Shown piece by piece: positions 6,997 to 45,427 of a stretch of 48,308 nt of DNA (position 1 is the first letter of the stretch; each line of letters opens with the position of its first letter). This DNA comes from Colwellia polaris (GTDB taxonomy: Archaea > Nanohalarchaeota > Nanosalinia > Nanosalinales > Nanosalinaceae). The translations under genes were made by a program, and so were the position numbers. The stretch lies in assembly GCA_047617785.1 (NCBI GenBank), contig JBLGBK010000005.1, positions 1 through 48,308 on the forward strand. Direction: 5' to 3'. The notes under the pieces were generated by a model. That model did no database searches. It was not told where the DNA came from and saw only the letters and a program-made list of their open reading frames with translations.

Positions 6997-7029
6997 TGAT
7001 GTATACTTACCTCTGGGGGTATAAAAATT

Positions 7030-34783: not shown

Positions 34784-34854
34784 GCCGGGATGGCAGAGGA
34801 GTTATGCAGCGGCCTGCAAAGCCGCCTACCAGGGTGCAAATCCCTGTCCCGGCT
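34784..34854 (+). tRNA. tRNA-Cys (GCA), intronless, CCA not encoded
   Basis: Acceptor GCCGGGA/TCCCGGC, anticodon arm GCGGC-CTGCAAA-GCCGC, T arm CAGGG-TGCAAAT-CCCTG, U73 discriminator. Confidence 0.95.
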
Positions 34855-34902
34855 TATTGGAGACATATTGCTTTTTTAACCAGCTTCCCGGTTTTTCTTT
34901 TA

Positions 34903-35376
34903 ATGAATATCAAAGAGGCAGACGTGTCCGATGCCGAAAATCTGGTTGATGAACTCTGGATTCCTCTAGCAAAGGAAATGGAAGAAGTCTCTGAGTTCAA
35001 CACGCTTGCGGAAAGCGGCGTACGGTCAGATGCCGTAAAATACTTCACTGACCGCTTGAGAAAGGACAAGCATAACTTCCTGATTGCAGAAGTAGACGGA
35101 GAGTACGCGGGTTTTGTGAGTGTTGAGGAACGGACTGCTAGGCCTGTTTTTGAGCGTGATAAATACGGTCATATCCACGAACTGTATGTATCGAAACATT
35201 ATCGGCGTCAAGGGATTGCAACAGAACTTTTGAAGGCTGCTGAAGATATGTGCCGCGAAAAAGGGTTTGATATGATTCGCCTCTCAGTTAACGTCCGAAA
35301 TGATTCTGCGCAGGAGCTTTACAGAGAGAACAATTTCTACGCTGAAAGAACTATGATGGTTAAGGACTTAGACTAA
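34903..35376 (+). CDS. GNAT N-acetyltransferase
   Basis: LYVSKHYRRQGIATELL, N..A.ELY; start moved to ATG 34903 because the longer ORF overlaps the tRNA. Confidence 0.9.
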   Translation: MNIKEADVSDAENLVDELWIPLAKEMEEVSEFNTLAESGVRSDAVKYFTDRLRKDKHNFLIAEVDGEYAGFVSVEERTARPVFERDKYGHIHELYVSKHYRRQGIATELLKAAEDMCREKGFDMIRLSVNVRNDSAQELYRENNFYAERTMMVKDLD

Positions 35377-35448
35377 AAGAAACTTTATCTAAGAATAAGC
35401 GAGTATAGCCAGAAATAACTTGAATCTGCTTCTACATAAACAGGTTTT

Positions 35449-36249
35449 ATGGAAGTCCGCGAAAGACAGCAGGTTGTCCAGTGCATAGTGATGGAGCAAG
35501 GAAGAGAAGACCAAGTTTTAATGGGTAAACGTAAACGCGACGACTACTGGGAGTTCCTTGGCGGAAAACTTGAGAAAGGAGAAGATGTTATCGAGGCAGG
35601 TATACGCGAACTTTCAGAAGAAACAGGTCTAGATCTTAGCATGGACAATGTAGTGGAGCACAGAGATGGAGAAAGCTACAGAAGCAAAGATGACGGACAG
35701 TACGTTCTGAATCCTCTCAAACTTGTATTCAGAAAAGATACTTTTGAAGAGATTAAGGTATCTGAGATGCCCGACCATTCAAAGTATGAATGGGTTGACC
35801 TTAAGGAGTTCTACAGCTACGATACACTTGGACAGTATCAGGCTCTGGAAAATCTTGGAATAGTGAATGGAGACGTTGCAATAGCAGTACCTTTCAACGG
35901 CGAGAAATATCTGTTGATGAAGAGAGGTCCTTCAAACACCAGTTCTGGATTCTGGGCATTTCCAGGCGGAAAAATAGAAGATGTTGAAGAAGGTAAAGGC
36001 GCGGTACTGCGCGAATTAGAGGAAGAAACTCAGTTAAACGGTACTATAGAGTATTCAGGAAAGCCTTACATTGATGAAGGTCAGTTAGGTTTCTGGCGGA
36101 TATTTCCTTATCTTGTAAAAGTATCCCAGGATGCAAAAGCTGTGCCTGACGCCGATCATTCTGCACATGAATGGGTTGACCTTGAAGACCTAGAAGAAAA
36201 AGAGACGCTAGGCGAGAAAAAATCGATAGAAAACCTAGACCTGAAATAG
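35449..36249 (+). CDS. Tandem two-domain NUDIX hydrolase
   Basis: Two Nudix boxes: GGKLE..RELSEETG and GGKIE..RELEEET. Confidence 0.92.
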   Translation: MEVRERQQVVQCIVMEQGREDQVLMGKRKRDDYWEFLGGKLEKGEDVIEAGIRELSEETGLDLSMDNVVEHRDGESYRSKDDGQYVLNPLKLVFRKDTFEEIKVSEMPDHSKYEWVDLKEFYSYDTLGQYQALENLGIVNGDVAIAVPFNGEKYLLMKRGPSNTSSGFWAFPGGKIEDVEEGKGAVLRELEEETQLNGTIEYSGKPYIDEGQLGFWRIFPYLVKVSQDAKAVPDADHSAHEWVDLEDLEEKETLGEKKSIENLDLK

Positions 36250-36253
36250 AACC

Positions 36254-36649
36254 ATGCCCGACCACATAGCAGCCAAAACAGCAGTATACAACCCTGAAAA
36301 GGGCGATTTTCTACTTGTGAAGATAGCTGATTCAAAGGAACATGGCGGTAAATGGGAATTTCCTGGCGGCGGAGTAAAGAAAGGGGAAACGCCTGAACAG
36401 GCAGCTTTACGCGAACTTGAAGAAGAAACCGGTTTGAAAGGAGAGATAATCAAAACTGGAGAAGCCGGTACCGTGGATCTGGATGGAAAAGTACTCGAGA
36501 TACACCCCTTCCTTGTAGTCGTTAAAGATTCTAAAGTGGAACTAAGTCGAGAACACAACAACTACAAGTGGTTGAAAAAGGAGGATTTCACCGAACTAGA
36601 TACCGTTGAAGGTGTACAGAAAGAACTGGAGGTTCTAGGTATAGAATAA
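36254..36649 (+). CDS. NUDIX hydrolase
   Basis: PGGGVKKGETPEQAALRELEEETGL, LSREH. Confidence 0.94.
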   Translation: MPDHIAAKTAVYNPEKGDFLLVKIADSKEHGGKWEFPGGGVKKGETPEQAALRELEEETGLKGEIIKTGEAGTVDLDGKVLEIHPFLVVVKDSKVELSREHNNYKWLKKEDFTELDTVEGVQKELEVLGIE

Positions 36650-36749
36650 TAGTTGTATAGATAACAAAGATAGATCGGTCTGAGGCAACGGACCGTTAAA
36701 TACTGTTAAAGGTTTAAAGACAGTTCTGGGAAAATGTTGATATAACGCT

Positions 36750-37193
36750 ATGAGCAAGGAAGAATTCAGAACCGTGGTTAAAGGCCTGATAACATATAAA
36801 GGCGAATTTTTGATAGGAAAGAAAGAAAAGACCTCTGGACACCCGATCAGTGAAGAATGGCACCTTCTAGGAGGTCATCTTGAGCACGGAGAACAGGTTG
36901 AAGACGCAATCGAACGAGAAGTAAAAGAAGAAACCGGGCTCGAAGTCGATGTACACCAGACTGTCGATGTTATGACCTTTGCATGGGATGGAGAAGAAAA
37001 AGATGCACTACAGATAGTATTTCACTGTGAAGCCGAAAACAAGAATGCAGAAGCCCTAGATGACCTATCAGAAGTAAAATGGGTTAGCCCGGAAAAGGTC
37101 AAGGACTATGTACACAGCGGAGAGGCACAGAGACTTCGAGATAGGGAAAGTCAAGCCCAGTTCCTCGAAAAAGTGAAGAAAGCACCGTTCTAA
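36750..37193 (+). CDS. NUDIX hydrolase
   Basis: GGHLEHGE..AIEREVKEETGL. Confidence 0.93.
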   Translation: MSKEEFRTVVKGLITYKGEFLIGKKEKTSGHPISEEWHLLGGHLEHGEQVEDAIEREVKEETGLEVDVHQTVDVMTFAWDGEEKDALQIVFHCEAENKNAEALDDLSEVKWVSPEKVKDYVHSGEAQRLRDRESQAQFLEKVKKAPF

Positions 37194-37196
37194 AGT

Positions 37197-37691
37197 ATGA
37201 AATTTCTTCGTCACTTCCAGACAGAAATCGAACCGGAAACACCCTCTTCAGAGTGGAATTTATCAGAAGAAGGACAAAAGGAAAGCCGAGATTTTGTGGA
37301 AGAAAACAGCTTTGACGTGAAAAAAGTTTATACTAGTACAGAGCCGAAAGCTGTTGAAACAGCTGAAAAGATAGCAGAGAAAGCCAATGCAGAACTTGTG
37401 AAAACCGATCTTCTATGTGAAGTAGATCGCAGCGAAGAAGGCTTCGTCGAAGATCATGACAGGTACATTGAACTGGTAGAAGATTATCTCTCTGGCGGTT
37501 CAGAAGCCGACTGGAGGAGTCAAGAATATGTGAAGCAGCGATTCCAAAAATTCATTGAGAAATCTGAGGAAAACAGTATCGCCGTTACTCACGGACTTTT
37601 TCTATCGCTGAACATTCCTGATAAAGACAAAATTGAGTACTGGAAAAACCTGGAATTTGGCGAAACAATCAACTATAGAATTGATAGTTAG
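37197..37691 (+). CDS. Histidine phosphatase superfamily protein
   Basis: LRH, LSEEG, STEPKAVETA, VTHG. Confidence 0.85.
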   Translation: MKFLRHFQTEIEPETPSSEWNLSEEGQKESRDFVEENSFDVKKVYTSTEPKAVETAEKIAEKANAELVKTDLLCEVDRSEEGFVEDHDRYIELVEDYLSGGSEADWRSQEYVKQRFQKFIEKSEENSIAVTHGLFLSLNIPDKDKIEYWKNLEFGETINYRIDS

Positions 37692-37709: not shown

Positions 37710-38690
37710 CTATTTTTCACGATTGGCCCATGACTCCGGAATATCTTTTTCTTCCTCCCATGCCTCGTCTATAATCTGATCTCGCCGGAAACGGCTTTGA
37801 AGAGGCAGATAACCCGAGTTGTGGTTATGTCCTCTAGGAGTCTGGAAATCGAACATTTCTACTTCTTTTCCGGTTTGATCAAATATCTCATGCTCGAATA
37901 TCTCATCGTATTCCGCATCGAAATGCATTGAGTGTATCTTATCCTCGTCAAAGCTTGTGATATGAAGACTATTCTCAGGCATGCTATCCGCCTTAGACTG
38001 GTAATTGAATCTGCGTGCACCTAAACCGAGCAGAATCTTGTCGCCTATAGTTCTCGGGTAAGGCATGTGAACGTGATCATAAATTGCTATATCTGTGTTT
38101 GAAAGACTTGGCGGAGTTCTCCTTGTTGACTGTTCATTAGTGTAACGCTTTACTGAAAACAGGTCTTCCAGCAGCTCATCGCTTCTTCTATCAGGGTGAT
38201 TTAGAGTGTTTTCCCTCTTGATTTTATGCGGGTGATGTGCTGCCTGTACTTTATTGCCTTTTATGTCTGTCTCGAACCCTTCATCAAATATCTCGTAATC
38301 CACTTCTACATCAAAAGGGTCCAAAGAGTTAATCTGAGTCATAAAACCAGTGAACTCATCGGCATCATCAGGATCATCCGGATCAGCATCCTTCTTATCT
38401 TCGTCTCCTGCCACCATCTTTACCTCAGGCCCAGGCTCAAGAGCGTCCAGAAATGTGTATACATCGTCATAGGTTCCTGTATCTCCCATAACATGTATCT
38501 CATCTATATCGTAATGTGCAACGTAGTCGTTTACCTGTCTGCCTACACCTTGAACATAGTCCTCTCTTATACTGGAATCATATTCTTCAAATGCATGTAT
38601 TTCAGAAACGTGTAGAACGTTGTAGTTATCAGGGATATCAAACTCATCAGGCAGGTAATTAGGACCACTCCTTGTTCTCAGAGAGCCCAC
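37710..38690 (-). CDS. Divergent calcineurin-like metallophosphoesterase
   Basis: Motif order HVSEIH / MGD / AGDED / HH / DHVH matches the metallophosphoesterase fold; GTG start uncertain. Confidence 0.6.
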   Translation of the reverse strand: MGSLRTRSGPNYLPDEFDIPDNYNVLHVSEIHAFEEYDSSIREDYVQGVGRQVNDYVAHYDIDEIHVMGDTGTYDDVYTFLDALEPGPEVKMVAGDEDKKDADPDDPDDADEFTGFMTQINSLDPFDVEVDYEIFDEGFETDIKGNKVQAAHHPHKIKRENTLNHPDRRSDELLEDLFSVKRYTNEQSTRRTPPSLSNTDIAIYDHVHMPYPRTIGDKILLGLGARRFNYQSKADSMPENSLHITSFDEDKIHSMHFDAEYDEIFEHEIFDQTGKEVEMFDFQTPRGHNHNSGYLPLQSRFRRDQIIDEAWEEEKDIPESWANREK

Positions 38691-38810
38691 CCTGTCAACA
38701 AGAATAAATTTTTATACCGGCACAGAGTAGAGTTTCTGCCCATTTAAGAGCATGTTAGGGATAAGGAATCAAAAATGTATCGGTAGTAGAATTCAGAGAA
38801 TATACAGGAT

Positions 38811-38818
38811 TTTTAATA
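38811..38818 (+). promoter_or_regulatory. TATA-like box for the cysS leader
   Basis: TTTTAATA centred about 26 nt upstream of ATG 38841, matching the spacing before other apparently leaderless genes in this window. Confidence 0.55.
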
Positions 38819-38840
38819 CTGGCAGTTAGTAGTTTGAGTT

Positions 38841-38912
38841 ATGAGCAGCACTAATTCCGGTGGTCGTTTTTGTCGACAGAGAAACCGTGTTTCGACAGAT
38901 GTTTTATTCTAA
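38841..38912 (+). promoter_or_regulatory. Putative leader peptide uORF upstream of cysS (MSSTNSGGRFCRQRNRVSTDVLF)
   Basis: ATG..TAA, 23 codons, Cys codon 11 lies inside a hairpin; region folds back on 38922-38940 next to the cysS SD-like sequence. Confidence 0.45.
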
Positions 38913-38954
38913 AGTTCTAAAACCAATTACAGAGCTGCTTGGAGCTGAAACTGT

Positions 38955-40394
38955 ATGACACTTAAGCTATTCAATACGCTGACACGTGAAAAAGAAGAAT
39001 TCAAACCAATAGAAGAAGAAAAGGTAAAGTTCTACAGCTGCGGGCAGACAATCTACGACGATCTGCACATCGGAAATGCCAAAGCCTACACCGCATGGGA
39101 CACACTAACACGCTACCTACGATGGAAAGGTTACAATGTCCGACACGTACAGAACATCACCGACGTCGGACATCTAACCGATGACGGAGATCAAGGAGAA
39201 GATAAAGTCGAGAAAAGGGCAAAAGAGCTTGGAATTGAACCTATGGAGCTGGTAGAAGACCAAATTGAACGTTATTTTGAAGATACTAAAGCAGTAAACG
39301 TGAAGCGGCAGGACATCATGCCTCGGGCGACCGGCCACATAAACGAAATGATAGAGTACGTTCAGAAGATCTACGACAATGGCTACGCGTATGAAGTTGA
39401 CGGCAACATCTACTTCGACGTTGAAGCATTCGCTAAAGAATATCCGTACGGCGAGATGGCGAACAAAGATATAGAACAGTTGAAAGAAGAGGCCAAGAGC
39501 CGTGTCGAACCCGACGATAAAAAGAAGAACCAGTTCGACTTCGCTCTATGGCTGAACTCCGAAGGAAGCGGGCACCTAATGAAGTGGACAGCGAAGTTCG
39601 AAATAGACGGCAAGCTAGTCAAGTCAGTAGGTTATCCTGGATGGCATATCGAATGTTCTATCATGAGCCAGAAGTACCTAGGCGATGAGTTTGATATCCA
39701 CGCTGGTGGGAAGGATCATATCTTCCCACACCATCCAAACGAACGTGCCCAGGCATTCGCAGCGTCTGGAGAAGGACAGGCTCGTTACTGGATTCACAAT
39801 GAATTCATCCAAGTTGAAGGAGAAAAGATGAGCAAGTCAGAAGGCAACTTTTATACAGTAAGAGAGTTGCTGGAGAAAGGATTCAGCGGCGATATTATCC
39901 GGCTCTATCTGATCAGCACCCATTACCGCACAGAATCTGATTTCAGTATTGAAGGACTTGAGAAGGCGGAGAAGGAGCTTTCAAGAGTAAGAAGCGTTGT
40001 GCAGAAGATTAGAAAGAATCCTGGAGATGTAGACTTAGATAACGATATCGAATCCCGGTTTAAGGAAGAGATGGATGATGACCTGAATACAGCTCGTGCT
40101 AAGCAGGAGTTAATGAGCTACGTCAGCAGGGTTAACTCGGAGATCGAGAAAGGAGCAGAACCTTCTGAAGAAATTGCTGACACAATCGAAGAGTTATTCG
40201 GAATTCTTGGTGTAAACATCGATCCCGATGTTTCAGAGATAGAGGCTAGTTTAGCTGATACCCTTCTGGAGCTACGTGATGACGCTCGTGAGAATGAGGA
40301 CTGGGATACTTCAGATTTAATCCGTGATCGTTTACAGGATCTTGGTTTCCAGATTGAAGACCGTGATGACAGCTCTACCTGGTTGAAGATATGA
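38955..40394 (+). CDS. cysS: Cysteine--tRNA ligase
   Basis: YSCG, HIGN, NITDVGH, PGWHIEC, FPHH, KMSKS, DDLNT. Confidence 0.98.
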   Translation: MTLKLFNTLTREKEEFKPIEEEKVKFYSCGQTIYDDLHIGNAKAYTAWDTLTRYLRWKGYNVRHVQNITDVGHLTDDGDQGEDKVEKRAKELGIEPMELVEDQIERYFEDTKAVNVKRQDIMPRATGHINEMIEYVQKIYDNGYAYEVDGNIYFDVEAFAKEYPYGEMANKDIEQLKEEAKSRVEPDDKKKNQFDFALWLNSEGSGHLMKWTAKFEIDGKLVKSVGYPGWHIECSIMSQKYLGDEFDIHAGGKDHIFPHHPNERAQAFAASGEGQARYWIHNEFIQVEGEKMSKSEGNFYTVRELLEKGFSGDIIRLYLISTHYRTESDFSIEGLEKAEKELSRVRSVVQKIRKNPGDVDLDNDIESRFKEEMDDDLNTARAKQELMSYVSRVNSEIEKGAEPSEEIADTIEELFGILGVNIDPDVSEIEASLADTLLELRDDARENEDWDTSDLIRDRLQDLGFQIEDRDDSSTWLKI

Positions 40395-42127: not shown

Positions 42128-45100
42128 TTAATTAACCGGCTCCGAGAAACTGAACCGAGTTTCAAGACTGCGGTGCTCAACCTCGCCGCTGTACTCTAGA
42201 CTTTCTCCAAAGACGATTTCATCAACTTTCATCCGGTCCTTCACGTCTTCAAGATAATCCTGAAGAATTTCTTTCTCTCCTTCAAATGAAAGCTTGATCT
42301 CGTCATGAACCTCAAGACCTGCTTCTTTACGCTTCTCCTGAATCGCACGGATAACCTCGTTCACAAATGCTTCTTCTACAAGTTCGTCGGTCTCCTCTAG
42401 GTCCAAGAATACCTCACCTGCCTCGAAGGTTTTACTGTGTGCATCACCCCGAGTCTGACTATGGATCTCTACATCATCCAGAGTTACATCGTAGCTGTCA
42501 ATCTCTATCTCTCCTAGTTTTCGGAGCTGCTCTACTTGATCGTGTTCTAGAACCTCAATCTTGTTCGCGACTTCATCTGCTGAGCTACCGAACTTCGGAC
42601 CAAGACTTGAATAATCAGGTTTGGCGGAGAGTTTGGAAGCAACTTCTCCAAACTCTATACCCTTAACATTCACCATATCCTCGATCAGGCTCAAAAGCGG
42701 CTGAAGACCTTCTTCTGTTTCCTCATCTGTGGAAATAACCAGTCGCTTGGCCGGCCATCGCAGGTTGTACTCTTCTTCATCCCGCAGCTTGTTTGCTTTC
42801 TCTACTATCTCACGTGAAAGCTGCATGTACCATTCCAAGTCTTCGTCAATAAACTGTTCTTCCGGCTCCGGATACTGTTCGCTGTGAACAGATACGCCGT
42901 CTTCCAAGTCCTGATAGACCTTTTCTGTTATATATGGTGCGAAAGGCGCCATCAAGCGGTTGAGTTGCTCAAGCACTGTTCCAAGAGTCCACTGAGCTTT
43001 CTCATCTCCATTTTTGATACGTCCTCTAACCTTTTTGACATACCAACGCGAGAGATCGTTTAGAATAAAGTCTTCTAGTTCTCGCGCTACTTCGTGGAAT
43101 CTACCATTATCGATTCTTTCTGGCGCGGAGTCTGTTATAGAGTTAATCCGTGATAGCACCCATTCGTCCTCGATATTGAGTTCTTCTGGTTTTTCAGGTT
43201 TTTCATCTACATAGGTGGTGTAGAATTCCTTAGTGTTCCAGAATACCGACATCAGCCGGTAAATTTCTTCTTCAATTTCTGATTCGTCATACTGGGTCTG
43301 CTCCCATGGCGCCGCTACTCTGAGAGAGTAGAATCTTGGGAGATCAGCGCCGTAGTCTTCTAACTGTTCGACAGGATCAACTACGTTTCCAACCGATTTG
43401 GACATTTTCTCTCCTTCCGCGTCAAGTACGTAGCTCTGGAAAAGAACCTTTTCATAAGGTGCTTCATCGAATCCAAGGATTCCTGTGAACATCAGGCTGT
43501 AGAACCATCCACGGATCTGATCTGAACCTTCTGTAATGAAGTCCATTGGCCACATCTTCTCGAAAGGCTGCTCCTCGAACGGATAGTGCAGGGATGCGAA
43601 CGGCGCAATACCTGAGTCGAACCAGACGTCGAAAATGTCAGGTATCCGTTCAAAATCTCCACCGCAGTCACAGCTCCATGTTATATCATCGACTACGTGT
43701 TTGTGAGGATCAAAGTCTTCGGGCAGTTCGCCGATCTTTTCTTCAAGCTGATCAAAGCTTCCAACTATTTCTTTTTCCCCGCAATCGTTGCAGATCCATA
43801 TTGGAATTGGGATACCCCAGTAGTTCTGTCTTGATATACACCAGTCAGGACTGTCTGAGACAAAGTTATGAAAACGCTTCTGTGCGGAATCGGGTATCCA
43901 GTCAACATCCTCGTTTTCTTCAAGCATCCGGTTTTTGACTTCTTCATTTTCGATGAACCACTGGTCGGCTGCTCTGTAGATGAGCTCTGTTTTGCATCTC
44001 CAGCAGTGTGGGTATTCGTGCTGGTAAGGCTCGCTGTGAAGCAGCAGATCTTTGTTCTCAAGTCTTTCTACAATCTCTGGGTCGACTTCGAGAACGTTTT
44101 CTCCTTCAAGGTCTCCTGCTTCTTCTGTGTAGTATCCTTCGCTGTCGAGCGGCGAGAAGACAGGTAGTCCTAGTGGTCTTGTTTCTTCGTAGTCTTCTGG
44201 TCCGTGCCCGGTTGCTGCGTGGACTAATCCGGTTCCTTCTTCTAGTGTTACAAGTTCTTCTGAGTTATGTATTCTGTGAACTCCGTCTTCTTCGTCCATT
44301 TCCTGCTGTTTTGGCACATCATCGAGGAATGGCGTCTCGTATTTGATTCCTTTGAGGTCACTGCCGGAGAGCGTTCTCTCGATTTTATAGTCTTCTACTC
44401 CTGCTTTCTCCATTACTGTGTCGACAAGCTGCTCTGCTACGATCAGTTTTTCTTCTCCAGTGTCGACGACTGCGTATACGTAGTCTGGATGAGTGAATAC
44501 TGCCATGTTGCTTGGGATTGTCCAGGGAGTCGTGGTCCAAATCACCACTTTTTCTTCACGGTCTTCAAGCGGGAATTTAACAAATACGGCTATATCCTCT
44601 ACTTGTTGGTACTCATCGGTTACTTCATAACCAGATAATGAGGTCTGGCATCTTGGACACCAGTGGATTGGCTTTGTTCCTTCGTAAAGTAGATCTTGTT
44701 CATCTGTTTTCTGTAGAAGCCACCATGCTGTTTCAATATAGTCGGAGTCAAAGGTCATGTATGGATTCTCAAAGTCTTGCCAGATTGCTAGGTCTTCCAT
44801 GACTGTCTGCCAGTCGTCTTTCGCAGAGGTTGCTCTTTTTCTACATTCGTTTATGAATTTTTCCGCAGAAATACTTCGTCCAATCTCATTCTTATTTTCA
44901 ATTCCTAGGTGTTCCTCAGTTGCTAGTTCATTTGGCAGCCCGTGTGTGTCGAACCCTGCCTGGTCGTGGACATCGTAGCCTTGCATCTGTTTGAAGCGGA
45001 GCATCGTGTCCTTGATAACTTTCCCCTGCATATGTCCTACGTGAGGGCTTCCGTTCAGGTATGGCGGTCCATCAATTAAGAAGAAAGGCTCGTTACCTTC

Positions 45101-45187
45101 CGTTGAGTCACGGACTTTTTGCTTTACATTATTCTCTTTCCAGTAGTCTTTGATGTCCTGCTCGATTTCCTGCGGATTATACGACAT
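42128..45187 (-). CDS. ileS: Isoleucine--tRNA ligase (archaeal/eukaryotic type)
   Basis: DGPPY, HVGH, WTTTPWT, DWCISRQ.YWG, EGSDQIRGWF, KMSKS. Confidence 0.98.
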   Translation of the reverse strand: MSYNPQEIEQDIKDYWKENNVKQKVRDSTEGNEPFFLIDGPPYLNGSPHVGHMQGKVIKDTMLRFKQMQGYDVHDQAGFDTHGLPNELATEEHLGIENKNEIGRSISAEKFINECRKRATSAKDDWQTVMEDLAIWQDFENPYMTFDSDYIETAWWLLQKTDEQDLLYEGTKPIHWCPRCQTSLSGYEVTDEYQQVEDIAVFVKFPLEDREEKVVIWTTTPWTIPSNMAVFTHPDYVYAVVDTGEEKLIVAEQLVDTVMEKAGVEDYKIERTLSGSDLKGIKYETPFLDDVPKQQEMDEEDGVHRIHNSEELVTLEEGTGLVHAATGHGPEDYEETRPLGLPVFSPLDSEGYYTEEAGDLEGENVLEVDPEIVERLENKDLLLHSEPYQHEYPHCWRCKTELIYRAADQWFIENEEVKNRMLEENEDVDWIPDSAQKRFHNFVSDSPDWCISRQNYWGIPIPIWICNDCGEKEIVGSFDQLEEKIGELPEDFDPHKHVVDDITWSCDCGGDFERIPDIFDVWFDSGIAPFASLHYPFEEQPFEKMWPMDFITEGSDQIRGWFYSLMFTGILGFDEAPYEKVLFQSYVLDAEGEKMSKSVGNVVDPVEQLEDYGADLPRFYSLRVAAPWEQTQYDESEIEEEIYRLMSVFWNTKEFYTTYVDEKPEKPEELNIEDEWVLSRINSITDSAPERIDNGRFHEVARELEDFILNDLSRWYVKKVRGRIKNGDEKAQWTLGTVLEQLNRLMAPFAPYITEKVYQDLEDGVSVHSEQYPEPEEQFIDEDLEWYMQLSREIVEKANKLRDEEEYNLRWPAKRLVISTDEETEEGLQPLLSLIEDMVNVKGIEFGEVASKLSAKPDYSSLGPKFGSSADEVANKIEVLEHDQVEQLRKLGEIEIDSYDVTLDDVEIHSQTRGDAHSKTFEAGEVFLDLEETDELVEEAFVNEVIRAIQEKRKEAGLEVHDEIKLSFEGEKEILQDYLEDVKDRMKVDEIVFGESLEYSGEVEHRSLETRFSFSEPVN

Positions 45188-45427
45188 AACACGGGTTCAA
45201 GTTCTGAAAGTTAAAAACATTTTTAATCTTCCAACAGATCGTCATCTCCTTCGGAATTAAACCTGAAGCTTTCAAGATACTTAGAGGACGCTATATACGG
45301 TAAATGCAGCCACTGAATAGAACTCTTTATTCTGAGATACGTAATTAGATGTTGTATGCGCTAAAGCGTGCATTTCCACCTCTATATCATCTGTTAAAGT
45401 ATAGTACGCTTCATTTTAACTGGATAA

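Follow-up and report, generated by a model that had tools for sequence, protein, structure and literature searches.

Control of a gene by amino-acid supply through an upstream open reading frame (ORF) is known from the leader-peptide attenuators (trp, his, leu, pheM), in which the dwell of the ribosome on cognate codons is the signal and which, in the case of pheST, regulate an aminoacyl-tRNA synthetase. The T-box regulon of Firmicutes covers synthetase and amino-acid biosynthesis genes, its leaders differing essentially in one cognate codon, and such a specifier-like codon is the defining feature of T-boxes. In prfB, the gene of release factor 2 (RF2), an internal Shine-Dalgarno (SD) element is spaced by about 3 nucleotides (nt) from the slippery codon. 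This gene is autoregulated: its short frame-0 ORF ends early, the internal SD stimulates a +1 slip of the P-site tRNA on CUU_U (UUU_U in some species), and the slow A-site codon serves as a gauge of the factor by which it is read; when this factor is scarce, +1 frameshifting rises and synthesis is restored (PMC5009743). Hungry A-site codons favour +1 slips as well, a vacant A site letting the P-site tRNA slip (Gallant; CUU_AGG_C of Ty1), although, according to this 2016 review, no natural starvation-specific product of such frameshifting was known (PMC5009743). Finally, a leaderless poly-Cys small ORF (sORF) of mycobacteria, Ms5788A, senses charged tRNA(Cys) with a translational effect (bioRxiv 10.1101/834739). 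Here we consider positions 38811-38957 of a 48,308-nt stretch of DNA (the window, meaning this stretch at its full length; contig JBLGBK010000005.1 of assembly GCA_047617785.1, listed as Colwellia polaris and placed by GTDB in the Nanohalarchaeota), which lie in front of cysS, the gene of cysteinyl-tRNA synthetase (CysRS). The window very likely holds the Cys member of a family of amino-acid-sensing leaders in Nanohaloarchaea, and, judging from sequence comparison, we consider it rather probable that this region is a cis-acting sensor of Cys-tRNA(Cys) supply whose output is +1 frameshift-coupled reinitiation.

The features of the locus are collected in Table 1. The earlier note, made from the DNA letters alone, had described here a TATA-like box, an ATG at 38841 opening a 23-codon upstream ORF (uORF) with TGT as its sole Cys codon, several stems and an SD-like sequence, and all of these are found where it placed them. 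The presumed regulated gene, cysS, has an N-terminus typical of CysRS (the family name was assigned without a Pfam run). The note had also set the box at leaderless distance from ATG 38841 and not from the cysS ATG, which agrees with the genome as a whole: AT-rich 8-mers before 662 predicted starts peak at 8-mer starts of -34 to -30, and the box upstream of the uORF starts at -30, within this peak; in the same profile no comparable box was found at leaderless distance before the cysS ATG. The 3' end of the genome's own 16S rRNA reads ...GGATCACCTCC and pairs with the SD of cysS, which is kept as GGAGCTGA or GGAGCCGA in loci L002, L003, L006, L016, L032 and L076. Since cysS has an SD and lacks a box at leaderless distance, it should be translated from a leadered transcript.

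Comparison with relatives, proposed in the earlier note, showed conservation of the leader ATG, of its distance from the box and of the Cys codon, the sought covariation of stems being confined to the outer helix (P1) discussed below. The cysS loci of relatives were reduced to 48 distinct ones, of which 44 had usable upstream sequence, and a homologous short ORF precedes cysS in 19 of the 44, homology being understood as an ATG 22-25 nt past an AT-rich box with Phe/Val-Cys in frame within the first 12 codons (for example, MSSGRFCPCH, MSSDRFCPRHI and MKGGRFCPARCN). The AT-rich box stands at equal distance in all related leaders, and the stretch separating the ATG from the Cys codon has indels of 3n nt only; an in-frame ATG at promoter distance together with such indels argues that the leader is translated. 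When a covariance model of the short forms was run over the 70 genomes of the class, all 18 best matches were found to adjoin cysS or tRNA-Cys(GCA). A second match of the model in the window's genome (C2:59846) lies within coding sequence, has no promoter box and was dismissed as a chance hit. Further leaderless Cys or poly-Cys uORFs, some with 4-7 Cys in 22-30 codons, are located upstream of tRNA-Cys (11 of 28 and 4 of 19 usable loci), and genomes G019 and G045 have separate leaders before tRNA-Cys and before cysS. By our tally, a leaderless Cys-codon uORF directly precedes cysS or tRNA-Cys in 32 of the 70 Nanohaloarchaea genomes. The tRNA-Cys of the window's genome (34784-34854) has its own box and no uORF. 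Cys makes up only 0.55% of the proteome.

The entry point to the wider family was a weak match of the model in a relative, namely a uORF before lysS in which Lys replaces Cys. The genome was scanned with a 12-nt motif taken by coordinate from the serS leader, an in-frame ATG, an AT-rich box and a short ORF being the sole requirements; cysS, tRNA-Cys, serS, thrS, glyS, valS and lysS were covered across relatives, in addition to one whole genome. The cassette consists of an SD-like element, a short spacer, UUU and one codon, designated X. In all seven scan matches with no more than one mismatch X is cognate to the gene that follows: MKGGRF-S stands before serS, ..KGGRF-V before valS, MKGGCF-T before thrS, M(PM)TGERF-K before lysS, MKGGRF-H before an operon with hisS as its third (last) gene, ..KGGCF-W before trpB and ..SGGRF-C before cysS. 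Matches with two mismatches include glyS (X = Gly) and a second Trp leader before trpB. Apart from cysS, X is cognate in eight other leader-gene pairs of the window's genome; Pfam and NCBIfam gave SerRS, ThrRS, HisRS and ArgRS domains and, above cut-off, equivalog models for valS, lysS, trpB and glyS.

Across relatives, where a confident match was one with at most three mismatches, X is cognate in every such match. The cassette was found at 21 of the 27 serS loci assessed (X = Ser, TCT or TCC), 18 of 29 thrS loci (Thr, ACC or ACT), 26 of 28 glyS loci (Gly, GGA in 25 and GGG in one), 25 of 30 valS loci (Val, GTA) and all 7 lysS loci (Lys, AAG in 6 and AAA in one). The remainder for serS are two doubtful four-mismatch calls with another codon and four loci without a leader; no leader was detectable at 11 of the 29 thrS loci and, likewise, at the remaining glyS and valS loci. 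Cognate identity of the sensor codon thus extends to nine gene families or more. The worry of the earlier note that one Cys codon is weak evidence thus loses its ground, a single codon after UUU being the rule family-wide.

The N-terminal extensions before the motif comprise 1-13 codons of unrelated sequence, with the box-proximal ATG always in frame with X, and the peptide tails past X are unconserved. Given that GGT GGA and TTT are nearly invariant in spite of synonymous codons, the constraint appears to be on the RNA and the reading frame and not on the peptide. GGTGGA, GGTGGT or GTGATC, complementary to the 16S 3' end, lies 2-3 nt upstream of the slip codon, and the codon before X in 112 leaders is TTT in 100, GTT in 7 and CCT or CCC in 5. 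In the +1 frame, re-pairing would be perfect on UUU_U for Cys, Ser and Trp and on UUU_C for His, the other X codons allowing it at the first two positions only.

From X onwards, the +1 frame has no stops for 60-190 nt. For 106 of 109 leaders, the +1 stop then lies between -17 and +12 relative to the main ATG, compared with 24.4 expected when the intervening sequence is shuffled, and in the same zone the -1 frame has stops in 6 and frame 0 in 1 of the 109. The usual endings are an ATGA overlap or stops at +4, +5, +7, +8 or +10; in the window, this frame corresponds to the listed ORF 38860..38958. In the second Trp leader it stays open for ~370 nt, up to the SD of trpB, and in the tRNA-linked Cys leaders it spans the tRNA gene (130-349 nt), and in 5 of the 7 cases it stops on, or adjacent to, the start of the following gene. 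Rather than coding for the regulated protein's body, the +1 frame ends at or beside the start of a separate ORF. Blocks related to the conserved block of the window (AAAACC..TTCTA[A/G]A), present in Cys, Ser, Thr, Gly, Val, His and Lys leaders, contain stops in frames 0 and -1 and none in +1; in 7 Cys leaders the -1 frame ends at -37.

The RF2 (prfB) site has the same layout, a slow A-site codon following a slippery codon with an SD element upstream of it, which suggests that the cassette is to be read as a site of +1 slipping. The course of events may be as follows. Transcription would start at or adjoining ATG 38841, and the leader ORF would probably be translated without a 5' untranslated region. 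Ten codons in, peptidyl-tRNA(Phe) would occupy UUU in the P site and the single Cys codon would stand in the A site, with the SD-like element just upstream able to pair with the 16S 3' end. As long as Cys-tRNA is plentiful, the Cys codon would be read and the ribosome would stop at TAA 38910, 45 nt short of cysS, leaving cysS poorly translated, and in this Cys subfamily P1 would reinforce the off state. When Cys-tRNA is scarce, the A site would be empty and tRNA(Phe) would slip +1 from UUU to UUU; the slipped ribosome would read the +1 frame through the remainder of the leader, melting P1 on its way, terminate at the TGA overlapping the cysS ATG and reinitiate on cysS. In the other leaders, scarcity of aminoacyl-tRNA X would similarly lead to a +1 slip, termination at the main start and reinitiation. 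Slipping under scarcity and an early stop under plenty would provide the homeostatic sign that is expected for a synthetase gene.

The locus shares with prfB the short frame-0 ORF that ends early, the internal SD-like element, here complementary to the organism's own 16S 3' end, and a P-site codon able to re-pair in +1. Unlike prfB, where the A-site codon is a UGA stop reporting release factor, the A-site codon is here a sense codon that would report aminoacyl-tRNA, and the +1 frame would carry the ribosome to the start of a separate gene instead of encoding the product; moreover, the system is archaeal, probably leaderless, and would serve many genes in parallel by swapping one codon. As to the hungry-codon shifts, a vacant A site would permit the slip in the same way, but the leader family would be a natural regulatory use of it. 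With the attenuators the leaders have in common an upstream ORF with a cognate codon on which the ribosome would dwell; in contrast to their runs of cognate codons, terminator/antiterminator hairpins and U-tract, there is one sensor codon, no conserved alternative hairpins occur in the Ser leaders, and no hairpin-plus-U terminator was found here (a bacterial promoter/terminator scan of 38500-39200, uninformative for an archaeon, gave no terminator-like site). As in the T-box regulon, many synthetase genes and a biosynthesis gene, trpB, have leaders differing in one cognate codon; T-boxes, however, bind uncharged tRNA directly by a conserved fold, and here the codon is in frame with a start, while an Rfam 15 scan of 38300-39300 at E <=10 yielded only a chance-level group I intron (14.6 bits) and NEAT1_2. 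The poly-Cys variants before tRNA-Cys resemble the mycobacterial sORFs, in which the Cys tract forms a very stable duplex with the SD of the following gene and which act on genes of Cys biosynthesis (bioRxiv 10.1101/834739). In the window, on the contrary, it is codons 1-3, not the Cys codon, that P1 pairs with a stretch 5' of the SD; cysS and the tRNA-Cys operon are the genes targeted, and at least eight other amino acids are represented in the family.

Several points weigh against +1 frameshift-coupled reinitiation. The sequences themselves show that the uORF is conserved, that the sensor codon is cognate, that UUU is accompanied by an SD-like element and that the +1 frame runs out at the main start; the leaderless start, the translation of the uORF, the slip, the response to starvation and the reinitiation we infer from them. 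We know of no demonstration of SD-stimulated +1 slipping for archaeal ribosomes. Only one archaeal frameshift, of the -1 type, had been established by 2021 (PMC8211752). The SD-like element contains a GUG in the +1 frame, at which translation of that frame could begin independently. Three of the 109 leaders break the rule of the +1 stop, most valS leaders have this stop 5-17 nt upstream of the ATG, with no overlap, and in 12 of 112 leaders the P site would hold GTT or CCT/CCC, codons that for the most part would be poor at re-pairing in +1. The Cys leader is seen in only about half of the genomes, and decayed or odd forms of it exist, with a GTG start (L031), with Cys out of frame with the ATG (L078) or with no Cys (L088). 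Besides, the relatives are not independent samples, the main start codons were set automatically as the first in-frame ATG, and the selection of leaders required the ATG and the AT-rich box, though neither X nor the +1 frame was used in it. Among the further matches, a doubtful argS candidate has TGA in place of an Arg codon at X, two Leu cassettes (GGTGGACGCGTT-CTA; L196, L197) are not situated before leuS, and upstream of ileS in the window (45187-45400, minus strand) there is no clear cassette or UUU-X site.

These last cases have some features of their own. The argS candidate (MILEAKPNLRGNRF; G000 C1:10420, plus strand, L198) has its TGA exactly at X (CGT TTT TGA) with two Arg codons just before; it may be a member with a different logic or a chance match, and TGA at X recalls prfB. 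The Leu cassettes, on the minus strand of G000 C19 (uORF at oriented position 7006) and C8 (11239), precede a gene of the class-I glutamine amidotransferase (GATase) family and an unknown 626-aa ORF, and in the leader of the amidotransferase gene the +1 stop overlaps the gene start. As for ileS (42128..45187, minus strand), a box lies at leaderless distance from a two-codon ORF, ATG-ATA-TAG (Met-Ile-stop), which is directly followed by AGGTGGA and a 30-codon ORF, and a further frame without stops spans -103 to +8 relative to the ileS ATG; this may be a divergent Ile version of the cassette.

The closest competitor, which we regard as unlikely, is attenuation by a switch of structure: a ribosome stalled at the Cys codon would prevent P1 and the nested stems from forming and so free the SD of cysS, with no frameshift involved. 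Precisely this logic is proven for the mycobacterial poly-Cys leaderless sORFs (bioRxiv 10.1101/834739), and P1 speaks for it. The MAFFT alignment of leaders misplaced the 5' ends and the 3' strand, and a first covariance-model alignment (A3) held spurious rows; pairing anchored on the invariant GAGCAG and CTGCTC and covariance-model alignments were used instead. Leader nt 2-12 pair with the segment just 5' of the SD in 13 of 15 cysS-linked leaders of one Cys subfamily (MSS-type), and in 18 of 25 MSS-type Cys leaders, the tRNA-linked ones included, the duplex is found at a shuffle p <=0.07. On an alignment fitted to the structure, with a few rows of poor quality, 90.3% of 176 cells are paired, versus 18-50% with the partner slid, and three pairs are changed on both sides (C-G to U-A, A-U to G-C); these measures were equalled by 5 to 21 of 500 shuffles. 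The frequent U.G pairs are compatible with plus-strand RNA only. In the GGAGCTGA forms the 3' strand adjoins the SD. The short forms have a competing proximal pairing beside P1, which is not a terminator, and in them a ribosome stalled at codon 7 would, judging from ribosome footprint sizes, cover the 5' strand.

The outer helix, at the level of these comparisons, is real but restricted to the MSS-type subfamily. The 123-nt fold of 38838-38960 taken singly is not above chance (z -0.23; 76 of 200 shuffles at least as stable), and P1, for which the earlier note had paired GAGCAGC with GCTGCTT against the SD, is missing from its minimum-energy form; it is the comparison that makes the uORF, the Cys codon and this helix significant. 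The other pairings of that note fared less well: the 8-bp stem around the Cys codon is present and belongs to the minimum-energy fold, but L003, L006, L032 and the short forms do not conserve it, and TAATT (38852-56) is complementary to AATTA (38925-29) as described, but both pairings are confined to the window's lineage, the hairpin being probably incidental. In the window, the Cys codon (leader nt 31-33) is too far from the 5' strand of P1 (nt 3-9) for a stalled ribosome to cover it, and masking such a ribosome at the Cys site raised the modelled accessibility of the ribosome-binding site (RBS) from 0.44 to 0.49 only. RNAalifold gave no conserved structure for 16 serS leaders (-1.7 kcal/mol), and no duplexes between the 5' end and the RBS region were found in 24 Ser and Thr leaders (mean z 0.13), although these share the sensor-codon design. 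Since the Ser and Thr leaders lack 5'-to-RBS pairing, pairing of the P1 type is not a feature of the family, and since they are unstructured and the effect of masking is small, a hairpin switch does not appear to be the common mechanism. The proposal of the earlier note is therefore kept in one part, namely that the Cys codon of a leaderless uORF would report Cys-tRNA to cysS, which the class-wide conservation supports; its output, a stalled ribosome melting the nested fold to free cysS, is not supported. A structure switch would, moreover, leave the conserved +1 frame unexplained, and it is this frame, ending on the main start, that makes us prefer frameshift-coupled reinitiation to the melting of a fold.

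The +1 ending on the main start would be explained equally well, with the ORF 38860..38958 of the window as an example, by two overlapping uORFs without any frameshift, the +1 ORF being started at the GUG and coupled constitutively to the main gene, and the frame-0 ORF modulating it by occupancy. Leaders of both the GGUGGA and the AGUGAU type do have this conserved GUG, in +1 and always 11 nt ahead of X. In minimal leaders, though, it would be placed 7 nt from the 5' end and lack a preceding SD. A stall at X would block the GUG start and give less synthetase under starvation, that is, runaway feedback; the extended Val, Gly and Trp leaders would have no need of a frame 0 that is open, as theirs is, all the way to X from a distant ATG; and the conserved UUU before X would remain without explanation. 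Because of the wrong sign of the feedback and the needless openness of frame 0 in long leaders, a GUG start is ranked lower, and we consider it slightly less probable even than the structure switch.

Very improbable is the view that the elements are genes of micro-proteins (e.g., metal-binding Cys-rich ones) or T-box-like RNAs that bind tRNA via the codon without translation: the poly-Cys variants do carry CGCG..CGC motifs, and 1 of 8 peptides came sub-threshold to Metallothionein family 11 (E 0.007, 17 bits versus a cut-off of 27), but 7 of the 8 have no Pfam match and none has an NCBIfam match, many leaders are of 9-12 residues with a single Cys and unconserved tails, the elements are always attached to the cognate gene, the in-frame ATG and the indels by threes point to translation, and apart from the chance-level hits mentioned no Rfam family, T-box included, was matched. 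With regard to the conserved AAAACC..TTCTAGATAAA block, an internal promoter is disfavoured, as its box would be 3-6 nt too near the main ATG for leaderless geometry and would exclude the conserved SD. T-rich plus AGAT-like blocks are present in the leaders, and the block may be a transcription terminator (T-stretch with an AGAT-like motif; compare PMC7237163), though such a reading would give the wrong regulatory sign.

Table 1. Coordinates of the features of the cysS leader region (positions of the window).
Feature	Position	Strand	Remarks
TATA-like box TTTTAATA of the leader promoter	38811-38818	+	leaderless distance from ATG 38841
Frame-0 leader ORF MSSTNSGGRFCRQRNRVSTDVLF, 23 codons + TAA	38841..38912	+	putatively leaderless
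P1 helix, 5' strand GAGCAGC	38843-38849	+	overlaps uORF codons 1-3
Internal SD-like element GGTGGTC	38859-38865	+	2 nt between its end and the slip codon; complementary to 16S 3' end ...GGATCACCTCC
Putative slippery P-site codon TTT (Phe)	38868-38870	+	
Putative sensor ('hungry') codon TGT (Cys), sole Cys codon of the uORF	38871-38873	+	cognate to cysS
Local 8-bp hairpin, strands 38869-76 / 38892-99	38869..38899	+	7 Watson-Crick pairs and 1 G.U; in the minimum-energy fold
+1 frame, open from the sensor codon to TGA 38956-38958	38872..38958	+	TGA overlaps the cysS ATG (ATGA)
Conserved block TTCTAAAACC	38915..38924	+	TAA 38918-20 closes the -1 frame, +1 left open
P1 helix, 3' strand GCTGCTT	38934-38940	+	adjoins the cysS SD; one G.U with GAGCAGC
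Shine-Dalgarno of cysS, GGAGCTGA	38941-38948	+	complementary to 16S 3' end
cysS (cysteinyl-tRNA synthetase, 479 aa)	38955..40394	+	presumed regulated gene; orthologues in 39/41 relatives

The spacer between cysS and its divergent neighbour on the opposite strand (37710..38690) is 264 nt long (38691-38954). In a conserved neighbourhood (window 34784-37691; L023, L024, L119, L120, L124) tRNA-Cys, several NUDIX hydrolase genes, a histidine-phosphatase-like gene and cysS occur together, and in the window the minus-strand gene 37710..38690 interrupts it between tRNA-Cys and cysS; the names NUDIX and histidine-phosphatase-like are those we assume from reading the translations, without a Pfam run. 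At L114, L118, L119, L121 and L124 the +1 frame is open through the entire tRNA-Cys, introns included, and has its stop on the start codon of the next gene (NUDIX), which implies that in these operons of relatives the tRNA gene would lie inside a translated frame. Introns of 48-84 nt after anticodon-loop position 35-37 are found in tRNA-Cys of many relatives (L025, L119, L120 and L121 included), and the intron-bearing tRNA-Cys of L120 was miscalled tRNA-Gly by ARAGORN. A tRNA-like fragment 40-110 nt upstream of the true tRNA-Cys is conserved in many genomes (L118/L159 in G051, L025 in G032, L141 in G003, L149 in G007, L157 in G020, L166 in G058, L170 in G035, L181 in G034, L185 in G059, L186 in G005); it is a copy of the 5' acceptor and D-arm of tRNA-Cys, after which come a small hairpin and a tail similar to GATCTGCGCACC, and could be a leader element, a remnant of a split or permuted tRNA or a processing signal. 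In the poly-Cys leaders (L139, L140, L142, L143, L150, L158, L165, L167, L172, L181, L079, L120) an acidic stretch is followed by C-G-C-G-x-x-C-G-C, a pattern which may reflect TGC-GGC repeat expansion or a function of the peptide. The nearest CysRS outside Nanohaloarchaea, by a pattern search (L043-L074), are bacterial and belong to Clostridia, Spirochaetota and Patescibacteria (33-47% identity).

The full texts reached by our literature searches describe neither leader-peptide nor frameshift control of synthetase genes in archaea, nor T-boxes or leader-peptide attenuators there, and contain nothing on cysS of Nanohaloarchaea; the statement of the earlier note that no such system is known for an archaeal synthetase agrees with this, and within these texts the leader family is previously undescribed. 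Taking the evidence together, we lean towards a genome-wide modular amino-acid-sensing regulon in Nanohaloarchaea that would work by +1 frameshifting at a single hungry sense codon and would be an archaeal counterpart of the T-box regulon. In such a regulon, it seems somewhat likely that one leaderless AUG cassette is reused before most synthetase genes, trpB and the tRNA-Cys operon, with X setting the specificity, and, with comparable likelihood, that the output is termination and reinitiation at the main start, even across an embedded tRNA gene. If so, starvation-induced hungry-codon frameshifting would here have its first natural use in regulation, and Archaea their first regulatory +1 frameshift. 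As the specificity apparently resides in one codon, the cassette could be a reprogrammable sensor for any aminoacyl-tRNA pool, and it offers a sequence signature by which unannotated regulated genes may be found in DPANN genomes. To the question of how archaea adjust the levels of their synthetases to the supply of amino acids, on which next to nothing has been established, the family would give a concrete, testable answer.

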